Source: a virus. Taken from it: DNA of 64,000 bases. This document shows positions 36,562 to 63,899 of this stretch, piece after piece. Where the stretch lies: the IMG/VR virus record IMGVR_UViG_3300002835_000024; one strand, written 5' to 3'. The translations under genes and the position numbers were made by a program. Positions within the stretch are counted from its first letter, which is position 1. The number at the start of each line of letters is the position of its first letter. Below the pieces are notes generated by a model. That model did not search any database. It saw only the letters and a program-made list of their open reading frames with translations, and was not told the DNA's origin.

Positions 36562-36563
36562 TA

Positions 36564-37157: not shown

Positions 37158-37166
37158 GAGGAACAA

Positions 37167-39373: not shown

Positions 39374-39375
39374 AC

Positions 39376-39894
39376 ATGTCATCATTAAACACAATCAAAA
39401 AAATAATATCTGAAAATAAAACAGATCTACCCTTTGACACCAAACTACTATTATTGAAATCCCACAGAGCAATTGGGCATCTGTTAGACAACAATACTCG
39501 AACAAAGACAAGAGACGGATATAGTGAAAAACTTTATGATAATTCAAATCATCTCAAGTCGCTTCATCACGCTATCGGAAACAGTTTAGTGCGTTTGAAT
39601 TCAAACGCACCAGATATGCGGACAAGTCATCCAAAGGGTAAAATGGGTGGTCTTGTTAAATGGGAAAGACCAAAACATCAGAAAGCTCTTCTTTGGATGG
39701 CCAGAGACGTTCTTAATAGTGTCAACGCCCAACATGGCAATCCGTTTAATTACGGTAATCCAGTTCCATCTCATAAAATGAGTGATGGCCAGTTTGATGA
39801 ACATATTCGTAGATTAGGTGATGTTGTTGGAACTAATCCTTGGCCAGAAGAAAGCATGAAAGACACAATTGATAAAGTAGCAAGAAGATCGTAA
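39376..39894 (+). CDS. Hypothetical protein inserted between gp6 and gp7, capsid-targeting-like N-terminus
   Basis: MSSLNTIKKIISE; His-rich. Confidence 0.6.
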   Translation: MSSLNTIKKIISENKTDLPFDTKLLLLKSHRAIGHLLDNNTRTKTRDGYSEKLYDNSNHLKSLHHAIGNSLVRLNSNAPDMRTSHPKGKMGGLVKWERPKHQKALLWMARDVLNSVNAQHGNPFNYGNPVPSHKMSDGQFDEHIRRLGDVVGTNPWPEESMKDTIDKVARRS

Positions 39895-42800
39895 TGATAG
39901 AAAAAACTATCTCACAGTATATTGAACGGCAGTTCCCCGCTTTTTACAAAGAAGAGGGGCAGAATTTTATTGCGTTCATGAAAGCTTACTATGAGTGGTT
40001 AGAACTACCACAAAACACAGCATACAAGTCCAGACATCTTTTGGAATGGCGAGATGTTGATACGACTTTGGATGAATTTATTGTTTACTTCAAAGAAAAG
40101 TATCTCAAGAATATCCAGTTTAACGTTTCTTCCAATAAAAAGCTTCTGATCAAAAATGCTTCTGATCTTTATAGATCAAAAGGAACTGAGCGTTCTATCG
40201 ATCTATTCTTCAAGCTTGTTTATGGTGTTGATGCTGAGGTGCAATATCCTGCTGAACGTATTTTCAAACTATCTGATGGTCAGTGGGAAACGCCCAGATA
40301 TTTAGAAATAACATACAACAAACAAAACATCAATTATGTCGGAAAGCAAATCATAGGATCTCTCTCTGGAGCCACAGCTTTCGTCGAAAAGTATATCAGA
40401 AGAAGAGCGGGATTTGGTATAGTCAGCATTTTGTACATATCTAATCCTAGCAAAGAATTCATCAAAGGTGAGAGTGTAGGCATATCGCAAAACGGAAGCG
40501 GTATCTACACTGACAACTCAGCCAGAATAATCGGGTCTATTTCATCTGTCACAATCTTAGACAACGGTAGAGAATTTGCTGTTGGTGATATTGTTAATTT
40601 CCAGGACTCTGAAAGAGGAAGAGGCGGATCTGCGAGAGTCGTTTCTGTAGGCGAAGAAACCGGAGTTGTTGACTTTATTCTTGAAGATGGTCTTTGGGGA
40701 TACAGCACCAACGCAGTTTCTCTTGTTTCTGAAAAAGTGCTGTTAGCCAATAATATTTACAATGATAAATTTGTCATTATGGACACTGTGGTGCAGCCTT
40801 CTGTGTTTATTGAATATCAAAATTCAGCAACGATTTCAGTTGGTGATATTGTAAGAAAATATGATGGATCTAACGTAGTTGCTAATGGAACAGTTATTGA
40901 TGTTGATCATGTGCTATCTTCTAACTCCGGAACAGCAACAATATCTATAACATCTGGCCCATTTACGATCGGAGACTACAAGTTAAACGCTAATGTTTCT
41001 AACATCAACGTAACATCTATAAGTGATTTTACGACCTATGCAGAGGTCATGGGAGTTCCGACAACATTTTTGCTAACTGTTTCTAATGCAAACAGTTTTG
41101 TTAATGGCCAAATCGTTACGTCAAATAACAATTCTAGAGGAACAGTATCGCAAATATTAGACAACACCATAACAGTTGTGAACACAATAGGCCACTTTGT
41201 AAACGGCAACTCTTTGAACGACACCACAATAACAAACGTAGAAGCATCAGTTGGTGTATACAATATCAACAAGAGATCTTTTAGAATCGATTTGGCCGAC
41301 GCAAACACCCCACCACAATGGCTTATCAGCCCATATGTTTACAAATATGATGCAAATGATGACATTTCTGCTTCTGGTCTAGTAGTAAGGTCAAACGTTT
41401 CTTCAAATACTGCCATTCTTAATATTATCCCACTAAAAGGATTCTTCGAATCCGGAGATTTCGTATACACCTCAGGCAACACATCGATAGCTACTGTTGG
41501 ATCGTATACTGGAAACACCAGAGGTGGCGATTTTGTGGAAACTGCAGGAGCGAAATATCGAGGAATCTTCAGCAATGTCAATTTTACAGTCACTTCTTTC
41601 TCTGATGGATTTGGTGCTGGATTCAATGTCGGCACCATTGGAGAAACTGAAACCCTCTATATCAATAACGATTTTATAAATGCTAATTCTAAAACTTCTA
41701 TCGATATTACAGCTAGAGTTGTCACAGTAGCATCAAATACTGGGTTTAAAGTCGGTCAAGCAGTTTCTCAAGATAGATCTGGAAATTTTGATCCTTCAAC
41801 AGACTTAAACACTACTACTGGAGTGTTTACTACTACAACTTTATTACCTTGGGCAACAAATAACTCCTTAGTGGTGTATGACCCTGGTAGTTCCAATACT
41901 ATAAACGGAATGATTGCGAATGGATATTATAGAGTCACAAACACTTCTGGAAACAGTTTCAATCTGATTGCAGTTCACGATAACAAACTTGTAAATAACA
42001 CAAACATACCTAATTTTGGCAACAACGTTCATGCAAATACACAATTAATTCGCAAAACAACGATAGCAACCATAAGGGGTATTTCTGGTACCAATATCAC
42101 AGTAGGCGATGTTTGGCAAGGACCTTTTGTTACGTCCGCCAATCTTTATATTTCTACAACTCCTACCACAAACACCAACGTATCAGCTGTGGGTTCTTTG
42201 ACTTATCCTACAGTAAACTCTTATAATTACCGCTACAAAAAATTAAGAAGCGTTGGTCTTGGATTTGCAAAAAGCCCTACTGGGTATTACAACAGCATAT
42301 TGAACAATCTTTTGACTTTCCAACTGTTGACTGTAGGAAAGGTCGCGTCTCTTACTTCAGTTCTTGGAGGATCTGGATATAATGTTGATCCGTATGTATT
42401 GATACAAGAGCCAGCTATATCAGGCTTTAATAGAAAAGATTATATTATAAAAATCTCTAACGTTAATTCTGTATTTTTGCCTGGAGAAAAAGTTTCTCAA
42501 AATCTACCAAATACTAACATCTATACCTATCAAGTAAATAATGGGGTGTTTGATACAACCCCATCAACAAAATTCTTTAATAGTTTCTTGGACGTTTCTG
42601 ATACTGATAATGTGATTTATGCTTTAGCAAACGTGTTTTCGTTTAACTCAACTTTAGATTTGATCGCCAACAATGGTTTCATTAAATTACCAAACACCCA
42701 ATCTTTTGTCGCAGGAGACAAAGTAAAATACGTTACTGCAACAGGAAACACTGCAGTCACAACAAACAATACCATCTTAAACGTTTCGTTTGTAAATTCC

Positions 42801-44135
42801 ACTGGAATTTCTGTCGGCAACTCAACAGGAAATATTGTTCTTGCAGAAACAATAAAACTTATTGTTCCCGCGAACATTGCAAATAATTATATCGCAGTTC
42901 CAACAAATCCATTTGCGAATGATGATATTGTAAGATACGTAGCTGATGTAGGAAATACTGCAATTTTGGGTCTTGCAAACAATAATCTATATTATGTTAT
43001 AAATTCAAATTCGAGTCATCTCAGACTTTCTAATTCTGTTGGCGGTTCTGCATTAACTCTCGATACAGGTGGGAATGAAACGGGGCACGGTCTTATCAAG
43101 TATAACGCCAGCGCAAATGGGAATTATCTGAGGCTGTACAAAAACGACCTACAAAATGGAATGTTATTGCAATATATAGTTTCTTCCGGAAACACAGCAG
43201 TAACTAATCTGACTAATGAAAATAACTATTTTGTCGTAAACTCCAATACATATTTTTATAAACTTTCTTCTACTCTCAATGGAAGTTCTATCGATATAGC
43301 AAATAACGGAACCTTTGCCTCAGATGGTCACGCTTTGTTGTTTATTCCAGGCTTCAGCGTAAATGATCCCGTGTATTCTTCGAATAATGGAGGCTCTGGA
43401 ATCATTAGAGGCGTATACAAACAATCAGGCAACTCTTTTATAGTTGTTCGAAACGTCTCTGGAACTATTTCAAACGGAGACACTATTGTTCTTAATAACA
43501 ATCCAGTTGTCAACTCTACCATACTTTCGGCCAATTCACAACAAGAAATAGTAACAGCAGAAGGCATAGTTCAAACTGCAAACTCGACCACTATTGTAGT
43601 TAGAAGAATACAATTTGAAAATCTTTGGCAAGTCGGCATTTCAATAAAGGGTGAAACATCAGGAGCAAATGCTAATGTTGTTTCTATTGTAGAAGATATA
43701 GATTCTCTTCCAATTGGATTAAATGCAGATATTCAAGCAAACGTTATTACTGCTGAGGGTCAGGTAACAAATCTACAAATCGTGGACTCAGGTTATGGTT
43801 ATACCAATAACGAGGTAATACAATTCGTTTCTGTGGATGGTCAAAGAGCGGGGACAGTAAAGGTTGTTCTTGGCGGGACAGGGATAGGAAGCGGTTATTA
43901 CAAAACCTCAAAAGGATTCTTGAGTGATGTTATTTGCCTGCATGATGGGGATTATTATCAAGAATATTCTTATGAAGTATTCTCGAAGCTATCAGTTGAT
44001 AGATATGCAGATATGTTCAAGAAAGTTATGCATACCGCTGGAACTAAGTTCTTCGGATCAGTGATGTTAATAAACGAGGCGAATGCCACATTAAGTCTAA
44101 CAGAGTCTTCAGTAACAGGAAACGTAGCAGGATAA
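39894..44135 (+). CDS. gp7: Baseplate wedge initiator gp7-like protein
   Basis: QFP.FY, F.KAYYEW, Y.SKGT..S..LFF..VYG, C-terminal D..YYQE.SY, H.AG.KFFG. Confidence 0.85.
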   Translation: MIEKTISQYIERQFPAFYKEEGQNFIAFMKAYYEWLELPQNTAYKSRHLLEWRDVDTTLDEFIVYFKEKYLKNIQFNVSSNKKLLIKNASDLYRSKGTERSIDLFFKLVYGVDAEVQYPAERIFKLSDGQWETPRYLEITYNKQNINYVGKQIIGSLSGATAFVEKYIRRRAGFGIVSILYISNPSKEFIKGESVGISQNGSGIYTDNSARIIGSISSVTILDNGREFAVGDIVNFQDSERGRGGSARVVSVGEETGVVDFILEDGLWGYSTNAVSLVSEKVLLANNIYNDKFVIMDTVVQPSVFIEYQNSATISVGDIVRKYDGSNVVANGTVIDVDHVLSSNSGTATISITSGPFTIGDYKLNANVSNINVTSISDFTTYAEVMGVPTTFLLTVSNANSFVNGQIVTSNNNSRGTVSQILDNTITVVNTIGHFVNGNSLNDTTITNVEASVGVYNINKRSFRIDLADANTPPQWLISPYVYKYDANDDISASGLVVRSNVSSNTAILNIIPLKGFFESGDFVYTSGNTSIATVGSYTGNTRGGDFVETAGAKYRGIFSNVNFTVTSFSDGFGAGFNVGTIGETETLYINNDFINANSKTSIDITARVVTVASNTGFKVGQAVSQDRSGNFDPSTDLNTTTGVFTTTTLLPWATNNSLVVYDPGSSNTINGMIANGYYRVTNTSGNSFNLIAVHDNKLVNNTNIPNFGNNVHANTQLIRKTTIATIRGISGTNITVGDVWQGPFVTSANLYISTTPTTNTNVSAVGSLTYPTVNSYNYRYKKLRSVGLGFAKSPTGYYNSILNNLLTFQLLTVGKVASLTSVLGGSGYNVDPYVLIQEPAISGFNRKDYIIKISNVNSVFLPGEKVSQNLPNTNIYTYQVNNGVFDTTPSTKFFNSFLDVSDTDNVIYALANVFSFNSTLDLIANNGFIKLPNTQSFVAGDKVKYVTATGNTAVTTNNTILNVSFVNSTGISVGNSTGNIVLAETIKLIVPANIANNYIAVPTNPFANDDIVRYVADVGNTAILGLANNNLYYVINSNSSHLRLSNSVGGSALTLDTGGNETGHGLIKYNASANGNYLRLYKNDLQNGMLLQYIVSSGNTAVTNLTNENNYFVVNSNTYFYKLSSTLNGSSIDIANNGTFASDGHALLFIPGFSVNDPVYSSNNGGSGIIRGVYKQSGNSFIVVRNVSGTISNGDTIVLNNNPVVNSTILSANSQQEIVTAEGIVQTANSTTIVVRRIQFENLWQVGISIKGETSGANANVVSIVEDIDSLPIGLNADIQANVITAEGQVTNLQIVDSGYGYTNNEVIQFVSVDGQRAGTVKVVLGGTGIGSGYYKTSKGFLSDVICLHDGDYYQEYSYEVFSKLSVDRYADMFKKVMHTAGTKFFGSVMLINEANATLSLTESSVTGNVAG

Positions 44136-44170
44136 ATATAAATATAAAATAACCTCAAAAGGAGATAAAA

Positions 44171-44632
44171 ATGGCAAAGAAAAAAGAATCTGGACCAGTT
44201 TACGACAAACCCGAAACTTTCACACACAAAGGGTTAAAATTTAATGGTGAGCCAATAACAGTTACTCACACTCACACTCCAGGCCTTGGGGCGCATAGAA
44301 TGACTGTGGAGCATGGAGGAAAAACCCTGGATTTGGATTTGGGTGGTTCGTCGCCAGGTGTAAGAGATGACGAATATCCTGTTGATGAAGATGGAAATCA
44401 GACAGAGCCCGACCCTAAAAAAGCGTCAAGAGAAGAAATAAAAGCGTTTAATGAAAAAATATCAAGAATACAAGCAAACGCATTTTTACGACAGCCAAGA
44501 GTAAAAAACGAAATTGAAAAAAAATTGTTTGGATCAAATCTAGAAAAAGGTACAGCTGCTGAAGAAACCAATAGACTGATGCAAAAAATTGTTGATGTTA
44601 TTAGCGAACAGAATAAAAAAGGTTTTAGATAA
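44171..44632 (+). CDS. Hypothetical late protein
   Basis: ATAAATA repeats upstream, AAGGAG RBS; C-terminal KIVDVISE. Confidence 0.6.
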   Translation: MAKKKESGPVYDKPETFTHKGLKFNGEPITVTHTHTPGLGAHRMTVEHGGKTLDLDLGGSSPGVRDDEYPVDEDGNQTEPDPKKASREEIKAFNEKISRIQANAFLRQPRVKNEIEKKLFGSNLEKGTAAEETNRLMQKIVDVISEQNKKGFR

Positions 44633-44647
44633 TAAGAGACATTACTG

Positions 44648-44676
44648 ATTATACTCAAATTTAAAACACTCGTCAA
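44648..44676 (-). promoter_or_regulatory. Antisense sigma70-type promoter
   Basis: Minus-strand TTGACG-N17-TATAAT. Confidence 0.55.
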
Positions 44677-44694
44677 TCTTTTTCAGGAAATAAC

Positions 44695-44832
44695 ATGACC
44701 AGACTAGAAAAAATAAAACAAATCATAAACGAGAAAAAAGAAGGCGAAGCTTGTTGGAAAGGCTATGAACAGTTTGGTATGAAAATGAAAAATGGCAGAA
44801 AAGTTCCCAATTGTATTCCTAATAAAAAGTGA
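44695..44832 (+). CDS. 45-aa protein with CWKGY...VPNC motif (not in ORF track)
   Basis: MTRLEKIKQIINEKKEGEACWKGYEQFGMKMKNGRKVPNCIPNKK; AGGA RBS. Confidence 0.7.
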   Translation: MTRLEKIKQIINEKKEGEACWKGYEQFGMKMKNGRKVPNCIPNKK

Positions 44833-44839
44833 CGTCAAA

Positions 44840-45358
44840 ATGAAACAAGAAACAATCAAAGAAGCGATCGATTATCATACGAGCAACAATATTAGGCTCA
44901 CCGAAAACATTTTTAGACCTGGCTCAGAGATGTTTTTTGAGATGATCAAAGAAGCCAGACGTCTATATCAAGAAGGCCAATATAAACCTATCGACGAGTG
45001 GGAAACTGATATGCTTCGTTCTGACATTGGCGAAACAGCTATGTTTGAGGGTAAAGAAGTTATTCTTGATTATCCATTTGAAGTAGAACTAAACGAAGAA
45101 GATAAGACGAAAGGTAAAGGTATCGGCAAGCCATTTAGAAAAAATGGTGGTGGAGCAGTTTATGTTCGAAGCGGAGATGGAGTTCGGCTAGTAAACTTCA
45201 GTCAGTCTGGCATGCAGAAGAAATTCAATGACCCAGGCGCTACTAAGTCTTTTATTGCTCGTCATCACTGTTTGACCAACAAAGATAAAACTTCAGCCTC
45301 ATACTGGGCCTGTAGATGGCCTAGATTCTTCAGCGACTCAGGTAAGAAATGGTGGTAA
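44840..45358 (+). CDS. Conserved phage hypothetical protein
   Basis: SF.ARH.C...KDKT...YWAC.W motif; ATG 44840 follows the upstream stop. Confidence 0.65.
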   Translation: MKQETIKEAIDYHTSNNIRLTENIFRPGSEMFFEMIKEARRLYQEGQYKPIDEWETDMLRSDIGETAMFEGKEVILDYPFEVELNEEDKTKGKGIGKPFRKNGGGAVYVRSGDGVRLVNFSQSGMQKKFNDPGATKSFIARHHCLTNKDKTSASYWACRWPRFFSDSGKKWW

Positions 45359-45628
45359 ATGTCTAAGCCATATGATGATAGTGAGATAAGTAAAGATGAA
45401 TTTTTTAGAAACTTCAAAAAAGATGTTCTAGAAGATGAATTGGTTTGGCATAGAGACGAAAAAGATAGAATCATAACAGTACTACTAGGAAAGGGATGGG
45501 AATTTCAGGAAGATAATTCTCTCCCAAGAGCGCTCAATGAAGGTGATCAGATTTATGTTCCTGCAAAAACCTATCATCGAATAAAACGAGGAACAACTGA
45601 TTTGATGATAAAGATCGAGGAATTGTAA
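45359..45628 (+). CDS. Cupin-like small protein
   Basis: ELVWHRD..DR, W.FQ.DN.LP, I.VP...YHR..RG. Confidence 0.7.
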   Translation: MSKPYDDSEISKDEFFRNFKKDVLEDELVWHRDEKDRIITVLLGKGWEFQEDNSLPRALNEGDQIYVPAKTYHRIKRGTTDLMIKIEEL

Positions 45629-48016
45629 ATGTCGACTAAACTTGTCACAAAAACCTTTAACGTCGAGAACGCCAAAAAATTCATTTCTTCTAATGATGAG
45701 TTATTCGTTTACGCTTCTAGACATATCCCTTATACTGGAGGAGATGGATCAGTTCCTTCTCCAGACAACTCAGTAGATTCTACTGTTATTAATGTTTATG
45801 ATAATATGATTTTTGCTAAAAGAGTTTCTGACTCCGATAAGGTTCATATGATACCAAAAATTATGTGGACTGCAAACACGGTCTATGACATGTATTCCCA
45901 TGATGATGGGTTTCTTTATGAAAAAGATTTTTATGTGGTTTCAAACACTGGGTCACAATATGATGTTTATAAGTGTTTGTACAATGCGGGCGGAATTGCG
46001 TCAAACGTAGAACCTACTCGAGCGGGTTCTGCAGTCGATCTTCTTCCGTTTGAGACTGGAGATCAATATGTTTGGAAGTATATGTATACAATTTCTTCGG
46101 CTGATTGGAACAAATTTTCCACAACATCATTTGTTCCTGTAACAGCGAACACCACAGTAATACAATCAGCAGTTCCTGGACAAATTGATGTTATTGTGGT
46201 TGAAGATGCAGGTCAAAGATACGACAATTATATTGCCAATGGAGTTTTTAGAACTGGCGATATTAAAGTAGGAGGAGCTGACACCTTTTATGGCGTAAAG
46301 GACGATGCTTCCTCCATCGACGAATATTATACTGGATGTGTGTTAAGAATAACCAACGGAACAGCTGTTGATCAGTATAGAAGAATTGTTGGGTATGTTG
46401 GAACATCAGAAAAGAAAACTGTAATATTAGATAGAGCATTCACAACTGTTCCTGCAGTGGGTGATACTTATCAAATATATCCATACATCTATGTTTTTGG
46501 AGATATGAATGAAACCGTTCCTGCTGAAGCTATGGCGATTATCGATGCCAATACCTCCAATTCTGTTTCGAGTGTAGAAATATTGAATTCTGGAGCAGGA
46601 TACAGGAAAGCAGAGGCATATGTTGGTGTTTCTCCAGATGTTCTTCCACTTAGCTCAAATTCTAATTTAATTGATTTGCCTGCAGTTATTTCAGGTGGAG
46701 TTGATTTCGAAGAAGCTAAATTAAAAGTTATTATTCCTCCTGCTGGCGGTCACGGATCAGATCCCTATAACGAGCTTTTTGCTGATAGAGTTTGTGTGTA
46801 TAGTAAATTCTCAAACACAGAGCAAGGGATGATATCTACTGATAACGATTTTCGTCAAATTGGTATCATATCAAATCCAAAACTAAACAATTTAGACGTT
46901 TTCTGTAACACGACATTAACAGTCGGAAGTTTTTCTATCGGAGAAAAAGTTAGTCAGTTCAAGAATATTAGATTGGCTGGAAATGTCACAGTTTCTACTA
47001 CAGCAAACACTATCACAAAAACAGATACAGGTAAAATATCTACGACAATTACTATTGTTGATGGTGGTACTGGATATAATTCTACTGTTAATAACTCTTT
47101 GGTATTCTCTAATCCTCTTTCTGGCGGAACAGTAGCTGTCGCAACATTTGTAAATAGTAACCCAGGCGGAACTATTACCTCCATAACAGTTTCTAACCAG
47201 GGAACAAAATATGATTCTGCTCCTACAGTCTCGGTTGGGGGATCTACTGGATCAAATGCTGTTTTGATTGCTACTCTAGCTAATCCAGAAAAAACTTTCT
47301 TTGATGATTGTTTTCAAACTGGCGATTATGCTCTGGTATCAACGGAAACTAAAAACTGGATTAATGTTGTTTCTAGTGTTTCCAACTCAGACGTTATTGT
47401 TGTTTCCAGCAATTCACCGTTTAGTAATACCACAGCAAGAGTTTCAAAAATAGAAACTGAGGCGACTGGAACTGTTACCGCAATATCAACAGGACAGATA
47501 ACTCTTTCTAATGTTTCTGGTGTTTTCCAGGAAGGAGCTAAGATTGTAGGACTTTCTTCTGGAACAACTTCAGTCATAAGAACATCAAACTCAGAATTTA
47601 ATGCTCTGCAAATAAACGACAAAGATCCAAATCTCTTCAACGTTATGGTTCAATTGTCTCGTCTAGCTGGAAATTTACAAACTGGTAATAATTTCATAGA
47701 AGATGAAGAAATTAGTCAGACAAATTTGATACAGTATACACAACCAAAAGCATTTGTCCATCATATTGAAACGGGTGGTGGAGCTAACGATGATGTGCTT
47801 TACGTAACCAATGAAACTGGAATATTTGCTTTAGATCCATCAAATTTAAAACCCATTATCGGCGAATCTAGTGATGCTATATTTTCATATTTGTCAGCTA
47901 AATACAAAGGTGATTTTGTAAAGGATAGTGGACAAGTTATATATTTTGAAAACGTTCAACCAATTTCTAGAGATACTGATAAATCAGAAGTTGTTAAGAT
48001 TATTCTGAGATTCTAG
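45629..48016 (+). CDS. gp8: Baseplate wedge gp8-like protein (extended)
   Basis: W.....YD.Y, VYKCL.N, P.......D.Y.WKYMY, P..GHGSD...EL, DFRQIGII.NP, SG.VIY.EN..PI.R. Confidence 0.85.
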   Translation: MSTKLVTKTFNVENAKKFISSNDELFVYASRHIPYTGGDGSVPSPDNSVDSTVINVYDNMIFAKRVSDSDKVHMIPKIMWTANTVYDMYSHDDGFLYEKDFYVVSNTGSQYDVYKCLYNAGGIASNVEPTRAGSAVDLLPFETGDQYVWKYMYTISSADWNKFSTTSFVPVTANTTVIQSAVPGQIDVIVVEDAGQRYDNYIANGVFRTGDIKVGGADTFYGVKDDASSIDEYYTGCVLRITNGTAVDQYRRIVGYVGTSEKKTVILDRAFTTVPAVGDTYQIYPYIYVFGDMNETVPAEAMAIIDANTSNSVSSVEILNSGAGYRKAEAYVGVSPDVLPLSSNSNLIDLPAVISGGVDFEEAKLKVIIPPAGGHGSDPYNELFADRVCVYSKFSNTEQGMISTDNDFRQIGIISNPKLNNLDVFCNTTLTVGSFSIGEKVSQFKNIRLAGNVTVSTTANTITKTDTGKISTTITIVDGGTGYNSTVNNSLVFSNPLSGGTVAVATFVNSNPGGTITSITVSNQGTKYDSAPTVSVGGSTGSNAVLIATLANPEKTFFDDCFQTGDYALVSTETKNWINVVSSVSNSDVIVVSSNSPFSNTTARVSKIETEATGTVTAISTGQITLSNVSGVFQEGAKIVGLSSGTTSVIRTSNSEFNALQINDKDPNLFNVMVQLSRLAGNLQTGNNFIEDEEISQTNLIQYTQPKAFVHHIETGGGANDDVLYVTNETGIFALDPSNLKPIIGESSDAIFSYLSAKYKGDFVKDSGQVIYFENVQPISRDTDKSEVVKIILRF

Positions 48017-55452: not shown

Positions 55453-55664
55453 TGATTAAACAAGATTATATCAAAGATAAAAACAGCGGCGCTATTTTAA
55501 ATATAAATACAAAAGAATTTGAAGAATTAAAGCATAGAAGAAAACAAGATAAACAACTGAGAGAATATGAAAAAAGGATAACACAATTAGAAGCTCGTGT
55601 TGTTGAATTGACAAATTCTTTGAGAGCAGTTTTGGAGAAACTTAGTGTCGTATCCAGTCAGTAA
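55452..55664 (+). CDS. Small coiled-coil protein
   Basis: KD..SGAILN.N followed by a coiled coil. Confidence 0.7.
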   Translation: MIKQDYIKDKNSGAILNINTKEFEELKHRRKQDKQLREYEKRITQLEARVVELTNSLRAVLEKLSVVSSQ

Positions 55665-56853
55665 CGTAAATATTCTAACAGAGACCTTTGAGTCTCTAAT
55701 TATCAGACAAAACGTTTTAGCTTGGCTGACGACGAATGACGTTTTAACTGCAAACGCAACTGGCGCTGAAACGGGCAACTCTACAACTTCCAAAACTGGA
55801 AGATTGTATGGTATGTTCATGGCCAACAATATTGTTGCTCAAGACTCCTTACGAGGCGGAAACACTTCAACTTCTGGAACGCTGACAGTAACATCAAACG
55901 TTGATGTTTATGTGGCTGCTGCAGCCGCTTCTATTTTAAGACTCGGAAACTCGACTTCAGTTTCTGTAATTAATAGTGTTGGTGCTTCCTTTAGTAATAA
56001 TGCCTCCAACACTAATATCACTGGCGCTTCTGTATTAATGCAAACAAATACAGTAGTTAACACAATTGCTAATTCAACAACCATAACAATTTCCAATGGC
56101 GCTGTCAATTCTCAAATGACATCAATTGGATTTGTGGCAGGTAATGTGGCTGCAAATCAAACAACACTTGTTGTTGGCGCAAATGTTGTGGCTAATACCA
56201 CCTCTTTGTTTATAGGAAATTCTACTGTCAATACAGTTTCAAATAATAATGGTATGGTTGCCTCAAACTCAACATTTGTGACAACAGTTTCGAGATCTGG
56301 CGTATACAGCAATGGTGTTTTGGCTATAACTGGCCAAGCTAACGTCGCAAATAGTTTAGGAGTTGTTGGGGCTGTTGCATTTTCTAATACTCTTGCTGTG
56401 ACTGGCGGTACCACTCTTTCTAATAATATAACTGTTGCTGGTCAGGCTAATATCAACAATAATTTAAATGTGACCGGAAACGTTTCAGTAAATAGCGATC
56501 TTATCGTTAAATCGGATTTAACTGTTCAGGTGTCAGCAAATTCTGACATCGGTACAGATATTGTCAATAATCTTTTAGTTTATAGATTCGCAAAGGCGGA
56601 TTTCTCAACAGCCAAGCTTCTGGTTCAGGTGAAAAAAGGAACTAACACTCAGATTTCTGAGATCATCTTGGCCCACAATAACAGCGCAGCTGAGATAACA
56701 GTTTACGGTACAGTCAGTTCTCCACCATCAACAAGTTCTTCTCCACTTCTAGCGACATTCACAGCAAACCTAAATAACGCCAATGTGGAACTGTTTATCC
56801 TTCAAACACAATCTAGCAGCGCAGTAAAAGTCATAGCCGATTTAATCAAATAA
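55645..56853 (+). CDS. Asn/Ser/Thr-rich tail fibre-like protein
   Basis: GTG start, beta-helical low-complexity body, C-terminal AK.LVQ....Q.SE....H......T.YG domain. Confidence 0.7.
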   Translation: MSYPVSNVNILTETFESLIIRQNVLAWLTTNDVLTANATGAETGNSTTSKTGRLYGMFMANNIVAQDSLRGGNTSTSGTLTVTSNVDVYVAAAAASILRLGNSTSVSVINSVGASFSNNASNTNITGASVLMQTNTVVNTIANSTTITISNGAVNSQMTSIGFVAGNVAANQTTLVVGANVVANTTSLFIGNSTVNTVSNNNGMVASNSTFVTTVSRSGVYSNGVLAITGQANVANSLGVVGAVAFSNTLAVTGGTTLSNNITVAGQANINNNLNVTGNVSVNSDLIVKSDLTVQVSANSDIGTDIVNNLLVYRFAKADFSTAKLLVQVKKGTNTQISEIILAHNNSAAEITVYGTVSSPPSTSSSPLLATFTANLNNANVELFILQTQSSSAVKVIADLIK

Positions 56854-56862
56854 GAGAAGTAA

Positions 56863-58788
56863 ATGGTAGATCAAAGATTTAAAGCGGATAAAGGTTTACA
56901 AGTTGCTGGCGGCAACACCGAATTAACGACCAATACCTTCATCAACGCTAATCTACAAGTAAATTCAATCGCCTCGTTTGTGGCAAACGTTTCTATAAAC
57001 GCTACGGCTGAGATGAACGGAAATCTTGTTCCTGCCTCAGGCGGAAGTTTATCTGTTGGAGAAACGTCAAAACGTGTATCATTGTTTGTGTCTCAGTTCT
57101 CTTATGCAAACGCCACACAACCCTCTCTTCCTGTCACCGCAAATAATTCAGATACGGTTTTCGGATTAGACGCTTCCAACACTGGCATAATTGTAAAAAC
57201 TGGAGACAAAACAGGAACAGTAAGATCTGTTGTCGGAGGAAACACCGTTTCTATTACCAATGGAACAGGTGTTGGTGGTAATATGACAATATCAGCTGTT
57301 CTTAATACAGGATTGTCGTCAAATAGTTCTGGCATTTTCGTTAACGCCTCTTCAATTAACTCTGGAGTAGCTCCTATTTCTGTTGGTGGAACAGGTGCTA
57401 GTAGCTCAATGGCAGCTATTTTAAATCTTTTGCCAAGTATAGTAGGAAATGCTGGTAGATATTTAAGGGCTGAGACAGGAACTCTTGTTTGGGATTCCGG
57501 AGTCGGAACTGGATTTGTAGGATCTCAAGGTTTTGTCGGTAGTGTTGGATTCACAGGTTCTCAGGGTGTTGGATTTACTGGATCTCAGGGCATTACTGGT
57601 CTTACAGGCTCCCAAGGTATTCAAGGCGTTGGATTTACTGGATCCCAAGGTATCCAAGGTGTTGGTCTAACAGGTTCTCAGGGTATTACTGGTTTTACAG
57701 GCTCCCAAGGTATTCAAGGAATTGGTCTTACAGGCTCCCAAGGTATTCAAGGAATTGGTCTAACGGGATCTAGAGGAGACATCGGACTCACTGGATCTCA
57801 GGGTATTCAAGGCATAGGATTTACAGGATCCCAAGGTATTCAAGGAATCGGGCTCACTGGATCTCAAGGTATTCAAGGCGTTGGATTTACTGGATCTCAG
57901 GGTTTGACAGGAGTGGGATTTACTGGATCTATAGGATTTACTGGTTCAATTGGTCTTACAGGTTCTCAGGGTATTCAAGGAATCGGTCTTACGGGCTCCC
58001 AAGGTATCCAAGGTGTTGGATTTACTGGATCTAAAGGCGATATTGGTTTAACTGGATCTCAAGGTATCCAAGGTGTTGGATTTACTGGATCAATCGGATT
58101 TACTGGATCTGCTGGAGGATTTACAACAAATTCCAACGCTCAGGTAAATTCCCTTGGGGTCGGAACTGCTCCGAATAACACAACTGGTGAAATTTTAGCT
58201 AAACTGCTTAGAGACTCAGATAATACTGCATACTATTGCGATCCAGCAAGTTTCAGCGTGTTTAATTCTTTGACTATTGGTGGCGATACTGACATATATC
58301 TTTATGAAGACCCAACAAATGCTCTTACAATTAGACATGGTACTGTTGGTTCTTACAAATACACCAGATTTGAAGCTGGAGGTGGACTGTCTGTAAATAA
58401 TGGTGGTCTTGGAGTAGGAACGGCTGCATCAGGAACCTCCGGAGAAATACGCGCCACAGACAACGTTACTGCTTATTATTCTTCTGATAAGCGTCTGAAA
58501 GAAAATATTCAAACCATTGAAGATGCTCTGCAAAAAATAAAAAGAATAGATGGAGTAACTTTTGATTGGAATGATGAATACATAGAAAATGCTGGCGGAG
58601 AAGATGGCTACTTTATTAGAAAAAGAGATGTTGGTGTGATAGCTCAACAGCTTCAGGAAGTTTTACCAGAAGCAGTTGCAGAAAGAAAAGATGGTATTTT
58701 AGCAGTTAAGTATGAAAGGATTGTTCCACTTCTGATTGAGGCGATTAAAGCTCTCAGCGAAGAACTTGAACTGCTTAAACAGAAATAG
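56863..58788 (+). CDS. Collagen-like tail fibre with C-terminal intramolecular chaperone (peptidase S74)
   Basis: G-F/L-T-G-S-Q repeats; SSDKRLKEN, GVTFDW, GVIAQ, V.Y..IVPLLIEAIK. Confidence 0.9.
   Translation: MVDQRFKADKGLQVAGGNTELTTNTFINANLQVNSIASFVANVSINATAEMNGNLVPASGGSLSVGETSKRVSLFVSQFSYANATQPSLPVTANNSDTVFGLDASNTGIIVKTGDKTGTVRSVVGGNTVSITNGTGVGGNMTISAVLNTGLSSNSSGIFVNASSINSGVAPISVGGTGASSSMAAILNLLPSIVGNAGRYLRAETGTLVWDSGVGTGFVGSQGFVGSVGFTGSQGVGFTGSQGITGLTGSQGIQGVGFTGSQGIQGVGLTGSQGITGFTGSQGIQGIGLTGSQGIQGIGLTGSRGDIGLTGSQGIQGIGFTGSQGIQGIGLTGSQGIQGVGFTGSQGLTGVGFTGSIGFTGSIGLTGSQGIQGIGLTGSQGIQGVGFTGSKGDIGLTGSQGIQGVGFTGSIGFTGSAGGFTTNSNAQVNSLGVGTAPNNTTGEILAKLLRDSDNTAYYCDPASFSVFNSLTIGGDTDIYLYEDPTNALTIRHGTVGSYKYTRFEAGGGLSVNNGGLGVGTAASGTSGEIRATDNVTAYYSSDKRLKENIQTIEDALQKIKRIDGVTFDWNDEYIENAGGEDGYFIRKRDVGVIAQQLQEVLPEAVAERKDGILAVKYERIVPLLIEAIKALSEELELLKQK
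57505..58115 (+). repeat. Collagen-like coding repeats (GFTGSQGIQG)
   Basis: Repeated GGATTTACTGGATCTCAAGGTATTCAAGG-like units. Confidence 0.9.
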
Positions 58789-58790
58789 AT

Positions 58791-61700
58791 TTATTTTCTA
58801 GCAAAGTGATAATCGCCCTGAGTTCCAAACTCAACAAAGTTTGGCGTTACTAGAGCAAATCCAATACTGTCAAGATACTCAATAACTTCTTTGTTCATTG
58901 GGGCTCCGATATTATATTCTTTATGCTGTAGCTCTAGTATCAGATGTTGGCAGGATTTTAAAGTTTCCTGAGCTCCTTTGAGAACATCAAGCTCTGCACC
59001 CTGAACATCCATTTTGATCAGATCAGGTTTGGGAAAGTTTTTGTTTTTAACTACTGAGTCTAGAGTTATTGATGTCTTTTCTATTTTGTTCGGGAATAGC
59101 TTATCTGCATCTGGACTATATTCGGTGTTTTCTTTATAGTAACTGTTTCCTCCAGGATGCTCTACGTTTTGATAGAATCCTATTTTCTTACCATCAACAT
59201 CACTGAGTAGCCCAACATGATATGGAATATTTTTTTCTTTATATAAAAATTCTAGCTCATCCATCGCATCAAATGCTATGTATTGAGAGTTTGGCCAAAC
59301 GTGTTTTGCGCAATTTGTCCAATGCAGAACGCAAGCTCCAATATCATAGATAACCTTGGGTTCAACCTTTTTAGATTTCATTTTTACCAGATATTCATAG
59401 TGGGCTTGCAGCATGAGAGGTCTATCACCAAGATCTCTTAGTTTTCTTTTTTGTTCTTCTAATTTAAAATCAATATTAACTTTAAATGTGTGATAACCAA
59501 TATGATCACAGATAATAGAAGTGTCCGCCCAGATTCGGAATCCTTTATTTTTTGCTTGTACGCAAAAATATACATCTTCGCTTACGGTATTTTCAATAGT
59601 TAATGCGCTTTTGTAAACAAAATGTGGGTATGGAATGGATTTAAAAATTTCCCCCTTTATCAGAACGCAACCAAATCCACAACCATCTATCTCAACTAAT
59701 CCCTTTCCTCTAATCTCTTCCCAATTCACATGAGGCATATTACCATATACGTCTTTTCTCATAATTTCAATCGTGTGGGTGCCAGGAATACGCTGAATAT
59801 AAATTCCGCTTACCATATCAACATTGTGATTTAACATTCTAACAAGAGTATCAGGAGCAAAAGTTATATCGCTATCAACGGCAAACAAATAATCATAATT
59901 ACAATTGATAACCCAATTGGCTATTAGATTACGAATTTGATCGATTTGATATCCATAAAAATATTGAAAATCCGCTTCATAACCTTCAGGAATAATCAAA
60001 TCATAAATGCTCTTGAATGTTTGCGCCTCAATATTTTTATTTGTTGGGATAGCAATTAATATTCTTTTTTTAGAATTTAAAGTTTGCATAATAACTTTGT
60101 CCTGTTCGTCTTTATTTACTTTATAATCATTGATGGGGCTGGCGTCATTGTAATTGCAAACAATATCAGAAACAACATATATTTTATGTGGATGACAATT
60201 ATTTATTGCTGTGTAGAATGTAGAAAGATCTCCACCAGCTTTGAACCAGTTTCCTTCTTTATCTTGAAATGCAGAATCTGGAGCCCACTTCAACAAATGC
60301 GCTTTCATCGTTCTCAAATGTGTGTAGGGCACATTCCAATTGAACTTATAGTTTTTGTAATTTTTAGTTTTCTTTATTTCAGGAGGATAAGGTTGGCTGA
60401 CTAAAGGAATGTTATCAACCATACTCCAACAAGATCCATACGTGAAGTCGTTGTCATAATGTATGTGATTATAATATGTGAATATGTCCGGATCATTTGT
60501 TAAACTGTCGTCACCGTCCAACATTACAACTATATCATTGTCGTTTAATTTTCTGATAGATTGGATATGATTGTATGGGGCTCCGTTTCTATTTGAGTTG
60601 ACAATAACCTTAAATTTATCTTTTATATCGTTTGGCAGAGAGTTGATTAGATCCAGTGCGGCTGCAGAACCATTATCAGTGCTGCAGTCATCAATTAGCC
60701 AATGCTCGTAGTTATCGTAATTCTGCGCTGCCACACTTGAAATGCAGCGCTTAATATAAGGCTCGGCGTTATAGAAAGGACTGATAACAACAATACGTTG
60801 TTCGGGTTTAAGTTTGGGGGCTACCCATTCTTCAGGAGTGCTTGTGCGGCGATTAAATATTTCGTGATATTTCGTTTTGGTGTAATTTGCTTCAATGCTT
60901 TCGCCACGGCTTAGATAGAGACCGAGCCTTTTATAGATGTGCTGTTTCCATTCAAGCGCCACAACATTCCAACCAACCAAAGGTTTAATTTCGTCTAATT
61001 TGTTCATTTTTTCTTGACGATCTGGATCGTTATAGGCCTGTACGACCATATCAACAAATTTTTCAGCTTGTGCATTAATATCAATATTAGGATAAACAAC
61101 ATTTGGCGTTGCGGAGTATTCAATCATATAAGCTTGTGGGCTCCCAGTTTCTTCCAGAGCTCCGAATCTACAGCCAATGATGAGAGTGTTTGCATAAAGG
61201 GCTTCTAGTGTGCTTATTCCATAGGTTTCTGGGAAAGCTGTTGGATAGATAAAGAAACTTGCAGCTTTGCACCAAACAGCCACTTCTTTTTGACTGATAA
61301 TCCCAGTAAATGTTATGGTCGGATCTTCCATAAATGGCTCGACCAGTTTCATAAACTCTGATTCTTCAGTATCGTTAGCCACAGCATTTCCGAGTTTATA
61401 ATGTCCTCCAATTACCGCCAGTCTGGCTTTTGGGATTTTTTGTTTGACTCTGGGCCAGACATTTTTGAGCAGAGGTTCTAATCCCTTGCTCATGTTAGCA
61501 TTGAAAATGAACAGATCAGGGTTTTTCTCGACAGTTTTGATGGGGTATCGGGTAATACCATTACGGGTAATCCACATATGATTGCGAAGAACTTCGAAAT
61601 TTCTTGGTTTGCCGTGATTGCAGTTAGTCACATAGTTATAGTGAAAATCGCTTAAAACCCAAATTTCGTCTATAGCCTTTGAAGTAACAAGATCTTCTAA

Positions 61701-63470
61701 AATCTCATCGCCCCAGCAAAACGTATCATGCATCCAAAACACTTTAAGTTTGGCGGCTTCTCTCATTTTTTCAAACTTTTGGAAAGGGATTTTTCTGTTG
61801 GTTGTTTGTTGCCAGTTATACCAAGGTTTGGTGATAAATGGAGTAACAACTCTGCTTGATATCAGAACATCATATGTTTGCTCGTCGTTTCCGATATCTG
61901 AAAGAGGTCTGTATTTTACGTTATCATATACGCCTGGACGATTTCCTTCTTCATCGCAAGCACAATAAACAGTAACATCAAATCCTTGGTGGGCCAATTC
62001 TTTGGCGCTGAGAATCACTGCACTCTCGCTCCCTCCAAGACCTTTGGTCTTTAATGTTTCCCCATCATAACTCATTCCTGTAATATCGATGTAAGCGACG
62101 CGAACTTCTTTTTCTTGTGGTAATCTCTGTGTGTTGCTGGCGGGCTCGGTGACTATAATATCCTCTACGTTTGAGAACCTTTTTCCAAAAGTTTTTCTAA
62201 CTCTATAATTAATCCAATTAACTTTCACCAACTCTTCGTCGGTCATCTGTTTATTGAATTTACGATAAAAATGCTGTTTCCATTGGAGCGCCACAGTATC
62301 CCATGTACTAATGTCTTTAATAGCGTTACACGCATACTGTTTCTGTTGATGAATATATGGGTTTGATACGACTGACAAAACAAGATCAACATATTTGTTG
62401 ATCTGTTCCTCGGTATTGATATTCGGGAACAGTACATTGGGCTCGACTGCATAATCTATAAAATAGCTGGCAGCTTTGGTTCCGCTTTCTTCCATCGCTC
62501 CGAATCGAGTTCCGATAACAGGAGTATTATAATTGATGCTTTCTATTGTGCTGATGCCGGATGTTTCCGGATAGGCTCCAGGAAACAGATTATAGGTTGC
62601 TTGTGCCATAATCTTGGCGATCTCAGGCTGGGGAATAATGCCTGTGAATTCGATTGATGGATCTTTTTCACAGCTTTTTACAAGACCGCGCCATTCTTGC
62701 TGTGCTGGGCTTAGATCTTCATTTCGAAACTTGTAATAACCACCGATGATCTTGAGTTTGGCCTGGGGCAAATGTTGTTTGAGTCTGGGCCAAATACGTG
62801 TTACCAGAGGGATCATGCCCTTGGTAATACTGGCGTTATAGACGAAAAGATTGGGATCTTTTTGTTTGATATCAACCCAATCGATCCACCTGTTGATAGC
62901 GTTTCTTGTGTGGAATATTTTATTTTTAAAAACTTCGTATTGACGTTTTGGGCCATGGGTGCAATTTGTTGTATATGCGATATGCCAATCGCTCAGATTG
63001 AACACTTCATCGACATGATTGTTAACCAGAAGATACTCGAGCAGGTGATCGCCCCAGATAAACGTATCCTGCATCCAGATAATCTTTAACTGTTCTGGTT
63101 TTTGCACCTGAGTGAAGATATCAGGATCATAGTCTCTTGGAGCAGGCTGTCTAACCTGATCATAAAGATGTTTTGGAGTAAACGGAATAACGGTTCTTTG
63201 ACTGATCACAACATCAAAGTTAAATTCTTTCTGGCCGAGCATTGCAATTGGATAATACCGGACTCCATCATAGACTCCAGGTTCTGTCTCGGAAGTATCA
63301 CAGTCATTTAAAACTGTTACCTCGAATCCAATTTTTACTAATTCTCTGGCGATAGAAATAATAGAGCTTTCGCTTCCGCCAATACCTTTTTTCGTTAGAG
63401 TAGAACCATCATAATTAAGTCCAATACAATCAATAATTGCTATTTTTATGTTGTTATTCATTAAACCCAT
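58791..63470 (-). CDS. Five-domain glycosyltransferase: GT4-GT4-GT2-GT2-like-FkbM methyltransferase
   Basis: Two GGSES...ET.GIST.E GT-B units; ISPFYNAE...IDD.STD...LDGDD (GT2); IAIP...VDSD...GFGCVLIK...SEDVYFC; IYDIGA...IKMDVQGAEL.VL.GA (FkbM). Start may be ATG 63461. Confidence 0.9.
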   Translation of the reverse strand: MGLMNNNIKIAIIDCIGLNYDGSTLTKKGIGGSESSIISIARELVKIGFEVTVLNDCDTSETEPGVYDGVRYYPIAMLGQKEFNFDVVISQRTVIPFTPKHLYDQVRQPAPRDYDPDIFTQVQKPEQLKIIWMQDTFIWGDHLLEYLLVNNHVDEVFNLSDWHIAYTTNCTHGPKRQYEVFKNKIFHTRNAINRWIDWVDIKQKDPNLFVYNASITKGMIPLVTRIWPRLKQHLPQAKLKIIGGYYKFRNEDLSPAQQEWRGLVKSCEKDPSIEFTGIIPQPEIAKIMAQATYNLFPGAYPETSGISTIESINYNTPVIGTRFGAMEESGTKAASYFIDYAVEPNVLFPNINTEEQINKYVDLVLSVVSNPYIHQQKQYACNAIKDISTWDTVALQWKQHFYRKFNKQMTDEELVKVNWINYRVRKTFGKRFSNVEDIIVTEPASNTQRLPQEKEVRVAYIDITGMSYDGETLKTKGLGGSESAVILSAKELAHQGFDVTVYCACDEEGNRPGVYDNVKYRPLSDIGNDEQTYDVLISSRVVTPFITKPWYNWQQTTNRKIPFQKFEKMREAAKLKVFWMHDTFCWGDEILEDLVTSKAIDEIWVLSDFHYNYVTNCNHGKPRNFEVLRNHMWITRNGITRYPIKTVEKNPDLFIFNANMSKGLEPLLKNVWPRVKQKIPKARLAVIGGHYKLGNAVANDTEESEFMKLVEPFMEDPTITFTGIISQKEVAVWCKAASFFIYPTAFPETYGISTLEALYANTLIIGCRFGALEETGSPQAYMIEYSATPNVVYPNIDINAQAEKFVDMVVQAYNDPDRQEKMNKLDEIKPLVGWNVVALEWKQHIYKRLGLYLSRGESIEANYTKTKYHEIFNRRTSTPEEWVAPKLKPEQRIVVISPFYNAEPYIKRCISSVAAQNYDNYEHWLIDDCSTDNGSAAALDLINSLPNDIKDKFKVIVNSNRNGAPYNHIQSIRKLNDNDIVVMLDGDDSLTNDPDIFTYYNHIHYDNDFTYGSCWSMVDNIPLVSQPYPPEIKKTKNYKNYKFNWNVPYTHLRTMKAHLLKWAPDSAFQDKEGNWFKAGGDLSTFYTAINNCHPHKIYVVSDIVCNYNDASPINDYKVNKDEQDKVIMQTLNSKKRILIAIPTNKNIEAQTFKSIYDLIIPEGYEADFQYFYGYQIDQIRNLIANWVINCNYDYLFAVDSDITFAPDTLVRMLNHNVDMVSGIYIQRIPGTHTIEIMRKDVYGNMPHVNWEEIRGKGLVEIDGCGFGCVLIKGEIFKSIPYPHFVYKSALTIENTVSEDVYFCVQAKNKGFRIWADTSIICDHIGYHTFKVNIDFKLEEQKRKLRDLGDRPLMLQAHYEYLVKMKSKKVEPKVIYDIGACVLHWTNCAKHVWPNSQYIAFDAMDELEFLYKEKNIPYHVGLLSDVDGKKIGFYQNVEHPGGNSYYKENTEYSPDADKLFPNKIEKTSITLDSVVKNKNFPKPDLIKMDVQGAELDVLKGAQETLKSCQHLILELQHKEYNIGAPMNKEVIEYLDSIGFALVTPNFVEFGTQGDYHFARK

Positions 63471-63472
63471 CC

Positions 63473-63545
63473 TATAAATAGAGCAAGAACTATTATTTAT
63501 TGACGCAAAGTAGCAAAGTTTGGCGTGTCGCTCTTTAATAAATAA
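63473..63545. promoter_or_regulatory. Divergent late promoters
   Basis: TATAAATA (+63473), AATAAATA (-63494-63501, facing the GT) and AATAAATA (+63538). Confidence 0.6.
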
Positions 63546-63569
63546 GAAAAAACTTGGAGGTTGAGAATA

Positions 63570-63899
63570 ATGGCGATTAAAGCAAATTTAGTCATCGATC
63601 AGGGATCAGATTTTATACAGGATTTACAGGTGACCCATGCAAACAGCGCTTCAATCAATCTAAGCGGTTATACTGGCTCTGCTATGCTCAGAAAAACATA
63701 TACTTCTGAAGCACAAAAAACGTTTACTGTGACTACAAATCAAAATGGAATTGTTCAACTGCGACTTAATTCTGCAAACACTGAAAGTTTACAGCCAGGG
63801 CAGTATGTTTGGGATTGCGAGCTAACTGAAATTAATAGTGGGATCGTCACGAGAATAGTAGAAGGAATTGTTACTGTAACTCCATCTGTTACTCGCTAA
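63570..63899 (+). CDS. Small virion structural protein
   Basis: NL.IDQG.DF, L.GY....LRK, L....T..L..G.Y..D......RI.EG.VTV.P.VTR. Confidence 0.75.
   Translation: MAIKANLVIDQGSDFIQDLQVTHANSASINLSGYTGSAMLRKTYTSEAQKTFTVTTNQNGIVQLRLNSANTESLQPGQYVWDCELTEINSGIVTRIVEGIVTVTPSVTR

Follow-up and report, generated by a model that had tools for sequence, protein, structure and literature searches.

To our knowledge, phage-encoded glycosylation of virions has been shown only for capsid and tail-tube proteins of mycobacteriophages, and glycosylation of collagen by viral enzymes only for giant viruses. The mimivirus protein L230 acts on the collagen-like protein L71, and R699 and the animal proteins LH3 and COLGALT1 are likewise collagen glycosylation enzymes. 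According to papers citing the original work, mycobacteriophage glycosyltransferases (GTs) act in the cytoplasm and modify virion proteins of the same phage (Freeman et al. 2023, cited in PMC12619734 and PMC12801897). In C. difficile, SgtA, a soluble Mn-dependent WcaA-like GT-A enzyme encoded beside bclA3, attaches beta-O-GlcNAc to Thr of the BclA3 collagen repeats; it also modifies Ser in vitro, and the native BclA3 glycan is extended and capped (PMC7157674). The A064R protein of Paramecium bursaria chlorella virus 1 (PBCV-1) has 638 amino acids (aa) and consists of two GT domains and a C-terminal methyltransferase that methylates the terminal sugar of the N-linked capsid glycan (PMC9614988).

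Here we analysed a 64,000-nt stretch of DNA from an uncultured T4-like myovirus (IMGVR_UViG_3300002835_000024; this whole stretch is called the window below). On its minus strand, at 58791..63470, lies a gene for a 1559-aa protein that combines four GT units with a methyltransferase, and the neighbouring gene encodes a tail fibre with a collagen-like stalk. The domain set of the protein with its intact catalytic motifs, its solubility, its position in the fibre cluster and its strong association with one type of collagen repeat across lineages lead us to propose that it is a soluble cytoplasmic enzyme that probably O-glycosylates and methyl-caps the collagen stalk of one or more tail fibres of the same phage, a reading to which we assign a probability of about 0.6.

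Domain architecture of the 1559-aa protein

Searches with Pfam, PHROG and NCBIfam profiles resolved the protein into the order GT4, GT4, GT2, A197-like GT-A and FkbM methyltransferase (minus strand throughout); its database copies begin at the second ATG, three codons into the open reading frame (ORF). GT4 unit 1 (aa ~8–440, 62151..63449; PF00534/PF13439) is of the retaining GT-B-fold type, and GT4 unit 2 (aa ~455–880, 60831..62108; Pfam) is its paralogue, with a mutual identity of ~42%. The Pfam families Glycos_transf_1 and Glyco_trans_1_4 match twice, at aa ~206–328 and ~655–774, with the N-terminal GT4 halves at aa 30–74 and 479–523, and the scores were 65.7 bits for PF00534 (cut-off 26.4) and 70.9 bits for PF13692 (cut-off 27), on two stretches each. 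The GT2 unit (aa ~890–1130, 60081..60803), of the inverting GT-A fold, matched Glycos_transf_2 (PF00535) at aa 895–1052 with 73.6 bits (cut-off 23.3), and its sequence matches in the PDB were GalT1/CgT, TarS and others. The second GT-A unit (aa ~1134–1335, 59466..60071) matched phrog_1574 at E 7e-24 and resembles the A197 glycosyltransferase of Sulfolobus turreted icosahedral virus (STIV; PDB 2c0n) both by sequence (phmmer, E 7.6e-4) and by fold (Foldseek, E 2.8e-11, template modelling (TM) score of the target 0.67, 21% identity). The C-terminal S-adenosylmethionine (SAM)-dependent methyltransferase (aa ~1373–1540, 58851..59354) belongs to the FkbM family, with 64.2 bits (cut-off 22.7) for Methyltransf_21/FkbM (PF05050) at aa 1376–1538 and 60.2 bits (cut-off 37.7) for TIGR01444. 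An FkbM protein of Moumouvirus shares 39% identity with this domain (target TM 0.95). The substrate of the domain is probably a sugar hydroxyl. A first-pass annotation of the window had described the protein as two paralogous GT4 units, two GT2-type units and an FkbM methyltransferase, and the profile searches and structure models bear this description out.

The AlphaFold2 (AF2) models had high confidence scores (N-terminal half, the GT4 pair: pLDDT 91.5 and pTM 0.91; C-terminal half: pLDDT 91.0). In Foldseek, the GT4 units matched MshA, BshA, PimB' and sucrose-phosphate synthase with target TM of 0.6–0.7, which corresponds to the two-Rossmann GT-B fold. The C-terminal half has the fold of tandem GT-A enzymes followed by an FkbM fold. 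The top fold matches of the models were the heparosan synthase PmHS2, the chondroitin polymerase K4CP and a capsule multienzyme of A. pleuropneumoniae, and weak NCBIfam matches were found to TuaG, WcaA and PgaC. We rejected the fold matches of the C-terminal half to LH3, COLGALT1 and R699 as a sign of collagen specificity, since a TM of 0.2–0.3 reflects the generic tandem GT-A layout. The protein is not placed in the BAHT family (TibC/Aah): TIGR04414 was absent from the NCBIfam matches at E <= 0.001, and the top rows listed by Foldseek for the N-terminal half were GT4 enzymes and not TibC. Similarly, no domain of HMW1C-type N-glycosyltransferases (GT41) was found in the Pfam and NCBIfam scans, and N-glycosylation sequons were not enriched.

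The catalytic sites were assessed by aligning 43 homologues. Invariant motifs were E-x7-E in each of the GT4 units (E302-x7-E310 and E748-x7-E756; alignment A2) and D-G-D-D in the GT2 unit (D106/G107/D108/D109 in the numbering of alignment A1). The D-S-D and S-E-D motifs of the A197-like unit were conserved; full invariance was seen for S418 and E419, and near-invariance for D320, D322 and D420 (alignment A1). Therefore, we conclude that all four transferase sites are under selection. No transmembrane segment was detected in the 1559-aa protein (the best mean Kyte-Doolittle value over 19 residues was 1.3), indicating that the enzyme is soluble.

Co-occurrence of the enzyme with a proline-free collagen repeat

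The proposed acceptor is a 641-aa tail fibre encoded at 56863..58788 (+), which consists of an N-terminal domain, a collagen stalk and a C-terminal chaperone (Pfam Collagen and Peptidase_S74). In its collagen-like tract (57502..58125, aa ~214–421, about 210 aa), G-[F/L]-T-G-S-Q repeats are interleaved with G-I-Q-G-[V/I]; the intramolecular chaperone domain lies at 58483..58677 (PF13884, 66.2 bits). The fibre has 126 aa in strict G-x-y runs without a single proline, and 32% of the X and Y positions of the tract are Ser or Thr (proline: 0%). The same character was found in the collagen adjacent to the GT gene in the window and related loci taken together: a hexad G-[F/Y/L]-T-G-S-x, with 0–4% proline and 32–46% Ser and Thr at X/Y. 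The collagen fibres of two T4-like records without the GT are of the G-x-Q type, with 8–13% Ser and Thr. The fibre gene (+) and the GT gene (−) are convergent and their stop codons are 2 nt apart (58788/58791), so the GT gene indeed converges on a fibre with ~200 aa of G-F/L-T-G-S-Q collagen, as the first-pass annotation stated.

The same annotation had suggested asking whether such GT fusions co-occur with collagen of the GFTGS type. We searched viral stretches with a degenerate DNA pattern for three consecutive G-[FY]-T-G-S-x hexads and, as a control, with a pattern for six G-x-Q triplets; each matched at least 120 stretches. Only searchable records of at least 50 kb were counted, and E <= 1e-130 was taken as a strong match to the GT family. 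Such a match was present in 26 of the 30 hexad-collagen records, compared to none of the 22 G-x-Q control records carrying the GT fusion, though six of the latter are at least 99% complete, and the proposed co-occurrence was thus borne out. Fisher's exact test gave p 1.1e-10, a value that is overstated as the records are related to one another. Most of the hexad records are fragments with a completeness of 13–48%, and therefore GT and collagen must usually lie close together. By coordinate subtraction, the distance between the GT and the strict pattern was 0.3–40 kb, with about half of the distances below 7 kb. Wherever a GT-bearing record extends upstream of the GT, it also contains a double hexad; the six GT-bearing records that lack one are either shorter than 25 kb or carry the GT right at a contig end. 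All five large GT-bearing records possess collagen genes.

To control for lineage, we compared the window with its relatives identified by the baseplate protein gp6. This sample consisted mostly of short fragments, and five large records served as the control. The closest large relative by gp6 (G006; 60% identity, 151.7 kb, 87% complete) contained neither the GT fusion nor any collagen. Its syntenic gene order is Vrl1, Vrl2, an Asn-rich protein, a fibre orthologue, a 202-aa ORF and a gene similar to the tail-fibre-assembly gene tfa. Over its N-terminal ~200 aa and its C-terminal S74 chaperone, the G006 fibre corresponds to that of the window, but it has no run of four or more G-x-y triplets. 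The comparison of G006 with the window shows that the collagen stalk and the enzyme are jointly present or jointly absent in otherwise orthologous loci.

In jumbo phages of 290–353 kb, the GT is 53–67% identical to that of the window, although gp6 can be aligned over only ~100 aa, with 28–36% identity. We conclude that the enzyme has moved between very distant myovirus lineages, each time with hexad collagen. Two contigs binned into metagenome-assembled genomes (MAGs) extend this picture. The first (L352) belongs to the lineage of the window, with VrlC-like proteins ~35% identical and a fibre C-terminus 67% identical, and carries the GT antisense among hexad collagen fibres, beside a tfa-like gene; in the second (L351) the order is collagen, GT, TylF-like methyltransferase, tfa-like gene. 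The counts, the contrast with G006 and these two neighbourhoods show that the enzyme gene is co-inherited with its proposed substrate, as expected for virion glycosylation.

Variants of the family and genomic setting of the locus

In a collection of 5.8 billion proteins, 1119 proteins matched the enzyme at E <= 1e-5 within the length band searched, and the best 120 clusters (90% identity level) are 50–84% identical and have the four-GT core in common. About half of the homologues (roughly 1330–1365 aa) lack the methyltransferase. The FkbM domain is thus an optional module, replaced elsewhere by a fused Methyltransf_24 domain (1750 aa) or by a separate TylF-like gene; in L006, which has no FkbM domain, the next gene encodes a methyltransferase of the TylF/Methyltransf_24 type, and the same holds for L351. 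This repeated recruitment of non-orthologous methyltransferases indicates that methylation of the product is selected for, and not one particular domain. Many viral records have a single GT4 unit only (ORFs of 869–1152 aa). Further modules were seen as an insert of ~218 aa between the GT2 and A197-like units (L017:4772-5427), in homologues of ~1800 aa with extra inserts (P0008, P0009, P0042) and in 1750-aa homologues with the fused Methyltransf_24 (P0073, P0075). ORFs of 325–349 aa with a weak match to the fusion's GT4 units were seen in relatives without the fusion (G006, G008, G010).

Among GenBank phages, megablast with the GT gene gave no match and tblastn gave only single-domain matches below 40% identity, so the GenBank phage collection contains no cultured relative. 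When one genome per prokaryote species was searched (n=185,579), the family was found on three MAG contigs only, and two of these carry phage tail-fibre genes, so they are probably phage DNA binned into MAGs. These two are L352, a 201-kb contig of a Cellvibrionaceae MAG, and L351, a 12-kb contig of a Gammaproteobacteria MAG, and their tail-fibre genes are homologous to those of the window; their binning might hint at a gammaproteobacterial host. Judged by its distribution in these sequence collections, the enzyme family is essentially viral and uncharacterised, and the literature that we searched contained neither a description of it nor a glycosylated phage collagen fibre.

Genes of T4-type baseplate and tail proteins (gp2, gp3-like, gp26, gp48, gp53, gp5, gp25, gp6, gp7, gp8) occupy ~29.7–48 kb of the window, with the baseplate genes gp48, 53, 5, 25, 6, 7 and 8 at 32383-48016. 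They are followed by the genes for two VrlC-like giant proteins, the 402-aa Asn/Ser/Thr-rich protein, the 641-aa fibre and, on the minus strand, the GT. From this position of the baseplate genes, the GT gene marks the distal end of the tail-fibre cluster. No terminator lies between the convergent fibre and GT genes (window 58788-58791), and therefore a transcript of either gene must continue as antisense RNA of its neighbour. Unlike in the window, GT and fibre genes point the same way in most relatives; a search for inverted repeats around the inverted gene revealed short, weak pairs only and no sign of an invertible segment.

The 402-aa Asn/Ser/Thr-rich, fibre-like protein (55645..56853, +), whose gene is a conserved neighbour, had no match in Pfam, PHROG or NCBIfam. 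Its orthologues occur with the GT in L352 and without it in G006, and it has 15 N-x-S/T sequons compared to 13.5 expected from its composition. We therefore rejected this protein as a substrate for an N-glycan: the sequons are at the expectation from composition and an orthologue is present in G006, which has no GT. On the other side of the GT gene, and diverging from its start, lies a gene for a small tail-fibre-assembly-like protein (63561..63899, +; phrog_1084, phrog_3304), with a likely start at the ATG at 63570 that is preceded by GGAGG. This tfa-like gene is a conserved neighbour of the fibre/GT block, as its homologues adjoin the GT in L351 and L352 and the fibre in G006.

The first-pass annotation had assigned a late-type promoter to the GT gene. 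The proposed element, AATAAATA (63494..63501, −), a variant of the late motif with one mismatch, is indeed present 24–31 nt before the GT ATG; this sequence occurs 8 times in the window compared to 7.0 expected by chance, and the argument is weak. The clear late motif, TATAAATA, occurs 9 times in the window, always on the plus strand and usually just before genes. Scans for sigma-70 promoters and terminators gave no excess over shuffled sequences, and no sigma-70-like site was found upstream of the GT. In the jumbo relatives the GT has the same orientation as the fibre genes, and in their loci (L001, L004, L006, L007, L010, L016, L018, L020, L021) a conserved TTAAATA stands 11–16 nt before the GT ATG, often with a TG-n-TATAAT-like box ~20 nt ahead of it. 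Several other genes of these loci are preceded by TTAAATA as well, among them that of the 2445-aa collagen fibre of L018, and the motif may be a lineage-specific promoter or translation signal.

Several genes near the GT recur in its relatives. Downstream of the GT or methyltransferase, most relatives have a gene with an endolysin/chitinase-like C-terminal domain (phrog_181; L018:14812-16092 and homologues in 15 loci), which is followed by a conserved run of small genes including two annotated as virion structural proteins. Directly upstream of the GT, small nuclease genes were observed in two loci (L001:9412-9942 and L020:9487-9951), one SNase-like and one HNH-like, which fits a mobile, recombination-prone slot. 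The jumbo GT-bearing records G002, G003, G005 and G033 (L006, L016, L018, L178) contain one to six genes for NAD-dependent sugar epimerases/dehydratases (PF01370), far from the GT, which suggests nucleotide-sugar pathways of their own. The window itself encodes a further, lone 311-aa GT4-type glycosyltransferase (13818-14753, +; PF00534, 45 bits), located among replication and nucleotide-metabolism genes near those of RNase H, ribonucleotide reductase (RNR) and ThyA.

Proposed mode of action, rival readings and comparison with known systems

The following course of events is inferred, from the choice of acceptor and sugars to the order of the steps and their benefit. The fibre would be made in the cytoplasm of the infected cell and the glycan added meanwhile. 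One GT unit would start the chain on Thr in the Y position, on Ser in the X position, or on both, in the G-[F/Y/L]-T-G-S-x repeats; residues at these positions are exposed in a triple helix. The best candidate for this initiating role is the GT2 unit, on the model of SgtA. The remaining units, two retaining GT4 and one GT-A, would then add sugars up to a total of about four (fewer in homologues with one GT4), and the FkbM domain would O-methylate the terminal sugar as a chain cap, as the third domain of A064R does. Since the repeats are devoid of proline, such a glycan may stabilise a triple helix that lacks hydroxyproline, shield it from proteases, or both. Pushed further, and only tentatively, the methyl-capped Thr/Ser O-glycan could be a substitute for hydroxyproline: a stalk without the enzyme could then neither form nor keep a triple helix, and enzyme and stalk would form an obligate cassette moving between unrelated myovirus lineages.

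Several observations weigh against glycosylation of the fibre, which we infer from genomic coupling and not from an observed sugar. Enzymes with GT4, GT2 or tandem GT-A architectures typically make polysaccharides or lipid-linked glycans. None of the domains comes from a family known only for protein glycosylation, and the top fold matches are the heparosan and chondroitin polymerases and the capsule multienzyme. Three hexad-collagen records (G022, G023, G031) have no GT and a fourth (G026) has a weak match to a lone GT-A only; all four are incomplete. The association test counts records that are related by descent, and its G-x-Q control set covers a broader taxonomic range than the hexad set. 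Finally, the GT gene of the window is antisense to the fibre operon, and neither the motif counts nor the promoter scans assign it to an expression class.

The serious rival, which we regard as unlikely, is that the enzyme builds a methyl-capped glycan on a host lipid carrier or host glycan, such as lipopolysaccharide (LPS), capsule or exopolysaccharide (EPS), and so alters the surface of the infected cell, which might prevent superinfection or keep progeny from sticking to debris. Multidomain GT4 and tandem GT-A proteins combined with methyl capping are indeed typical of ABC-transporter-dependent synthesis of O-antigen, capsule and S-layer glycans, as in WbdA/WbdD and WsaE. The best fold matches (PmHS2, K4CP and the A. 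pleuropneumoniae enzyme), the weak ones to TuaG, WcaA and PgaC, and the sugar epimerase/dehydratase genes of the jumbo relatives point in the same direction. However, synthesis of a surface glycan leaves unexplained that the GT tracks the repeat type of the fibre stalk, a part other than the receptor-binding tip, and that the orthologous G006 fibre, which has no collagen, comes without the GT. The enzyme also has no membrane segment, none of five GT-bearing records of jumbo phages (completeness at least 92% in three) encodes an initiating phosphoglycosyltransferase (PF02397, PF00953), and the family is essentially absent from the genomes of 185,579 species.

Somewhat less probable again is modification of other virion proteins (other fibres, the Asn-rich or VrlC-like proteins, baseplate or capsid), with the link to collagen as a by-product of a mobile fibre cassette. 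Mycobacteriophages, as described in a paper citing the work, glycosylate the C-termini of capsid and tail-tube proteins (Freeman 2023, cited in PMC12619734), the proteins of the fibre cluster are rich in Ser, Thr and Asn, and in about half of the records the GT lies 10–40 kb from the strict collagen pattern. Nevertheless, G006 has orthologues of the Asn-rich and VrlC-like proteins and no GT, the sequons do not exceed the compositional expectation, and hexad collagen is the only feature that we found to co-vary with the GT. Hypermodification of phage DNA with an oligosaccharide, comparable to that by T-even glucosyltransferases and other viral DNA glycosyltransferases, is very improbable. It would suit a T4-like phage, phage glycosyltransferases are often assigned to DNA protection according to a paper citing this view (Pyle 2024, cited in PMC12619734), and one distant GT4 match in GenBank phages is annotated as 'beta4glucosyltransferase'. 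The ThyA of the window, however, is a canonical thymidylate synthase (TIGR03284, 312 bits, cut-off 108). Four of the five large GT-bearing records, including two that are at least 92% complete, possess exactly one ThyA-family gene, and the fifth (G001, 39% complete) has none; thus, no paralogue acting as a hydroxymethylase of deoxycytidine or deoxyuridine monophosphate (dCMP/dUMP) is evident. The Pfam matches of the protein include neither the alpha- nor the beta-glucosyltransferase family of T4, and its gene lies in the fibre cluster, with the separate lone GT among the replication genes. The first-pass annotation had already judged DNA glucosylation less likely, and the single canonical ThyA-family gene agrees with this. 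Its central proposal, of one polypeptide that assembles a glycan on fibres or baseplate and caps it with a methyl group, holds up in part: the co-occurrence data favour the Ser/Thr-containing collagen stalk as the acceptor, the sequon counts and G006 speak against the Asn-rich protein, and nothing points to the baseplate.

T4-like and jumbo phages carry this enzyme as a large family, which comprises more than 120 clusters at 90% identity and is tied to one proline-free collagen repeat. If the fibres are glycosylated, this would explain how phages build long collagen stalks without hydroxyproline, add a layer to the host-range and stability biology of abundant environmental phages, and provide a compact, soluble and modular glyco-assembly enzyme with a defined peptide acceptor. 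Should the glycan in fact replace hydroxyproline, fibres of aquatic phages would widely be built of glycosylated collagen, a material that has so far gone unrecognised.

By function, the proposed system comes closest to SgtA–BclA3, A064R, mimivirus collagen modification and mycobacteriophage virion glycosylation. Among other known systems, WbdA/WbdD of E. coli O8/O9a and WsaE of the Geobacillus S-layer glycan combine tandem GT modules with a chain-terminating methyltransferase. They differ from the proposed fibre-modifying enzyme in working on undecaprenyl-linked intermediates at the membrane and in needing initiating, export and ligation machinery; machinery of this type was not found in the phage genomes checked. 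Mimivirus, too, adds sugars to collagen-like structural proteins of its own, and the tandem GT-A half retrieves LH3, COLGALT1 and R699 by fold. These enzymes, however, glycosylate hydroxylysine and need a lysyl hydroxylase, whereas the repeats studied here contain almost no Lys and no hydroxylase was found. The mycobacteriophage enzymes, as far as the citing papers describe them, are encoded by separate GT genes, target capsid and tail-tube C-termini and act in actinobacterial hosts, whereas we propose a five-domain fusion acting on a collagen fibre of aquatic T4-like and jumbo myoviruses.

A064R, likened here by description, as it had no match among the sequence searches made, is also a virus-encoded, soluble, single polypeptide in which GT-A-type domains are followed by a C-terminal methyltransferase. 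It acts on the N-linked capsid glycan of a eukaryotic virus, whereas the enzyme of the window has four GT units, including two GT4 (GT-B), a proposed O-linkage to collagen and a bacterial host. SgtA, likewise compared by description and not by sequence, has one GT domain and TPR and belongs to a bacterial spore locus; in the phage protein, four GT units and a methyltransferase are fused without TPR and the proposed substrate is a tail fibre with G-[FY]-T-G-S-x instead of BclA-type repeats. Common to SgtA–BclA3 and the phage locus are a soluble GT2-type enzyme, a gene located beside that of a collagen-like protein, and Thr/Ser of G-x-y repeats as the known or, in the phage, proposed site of attachment.

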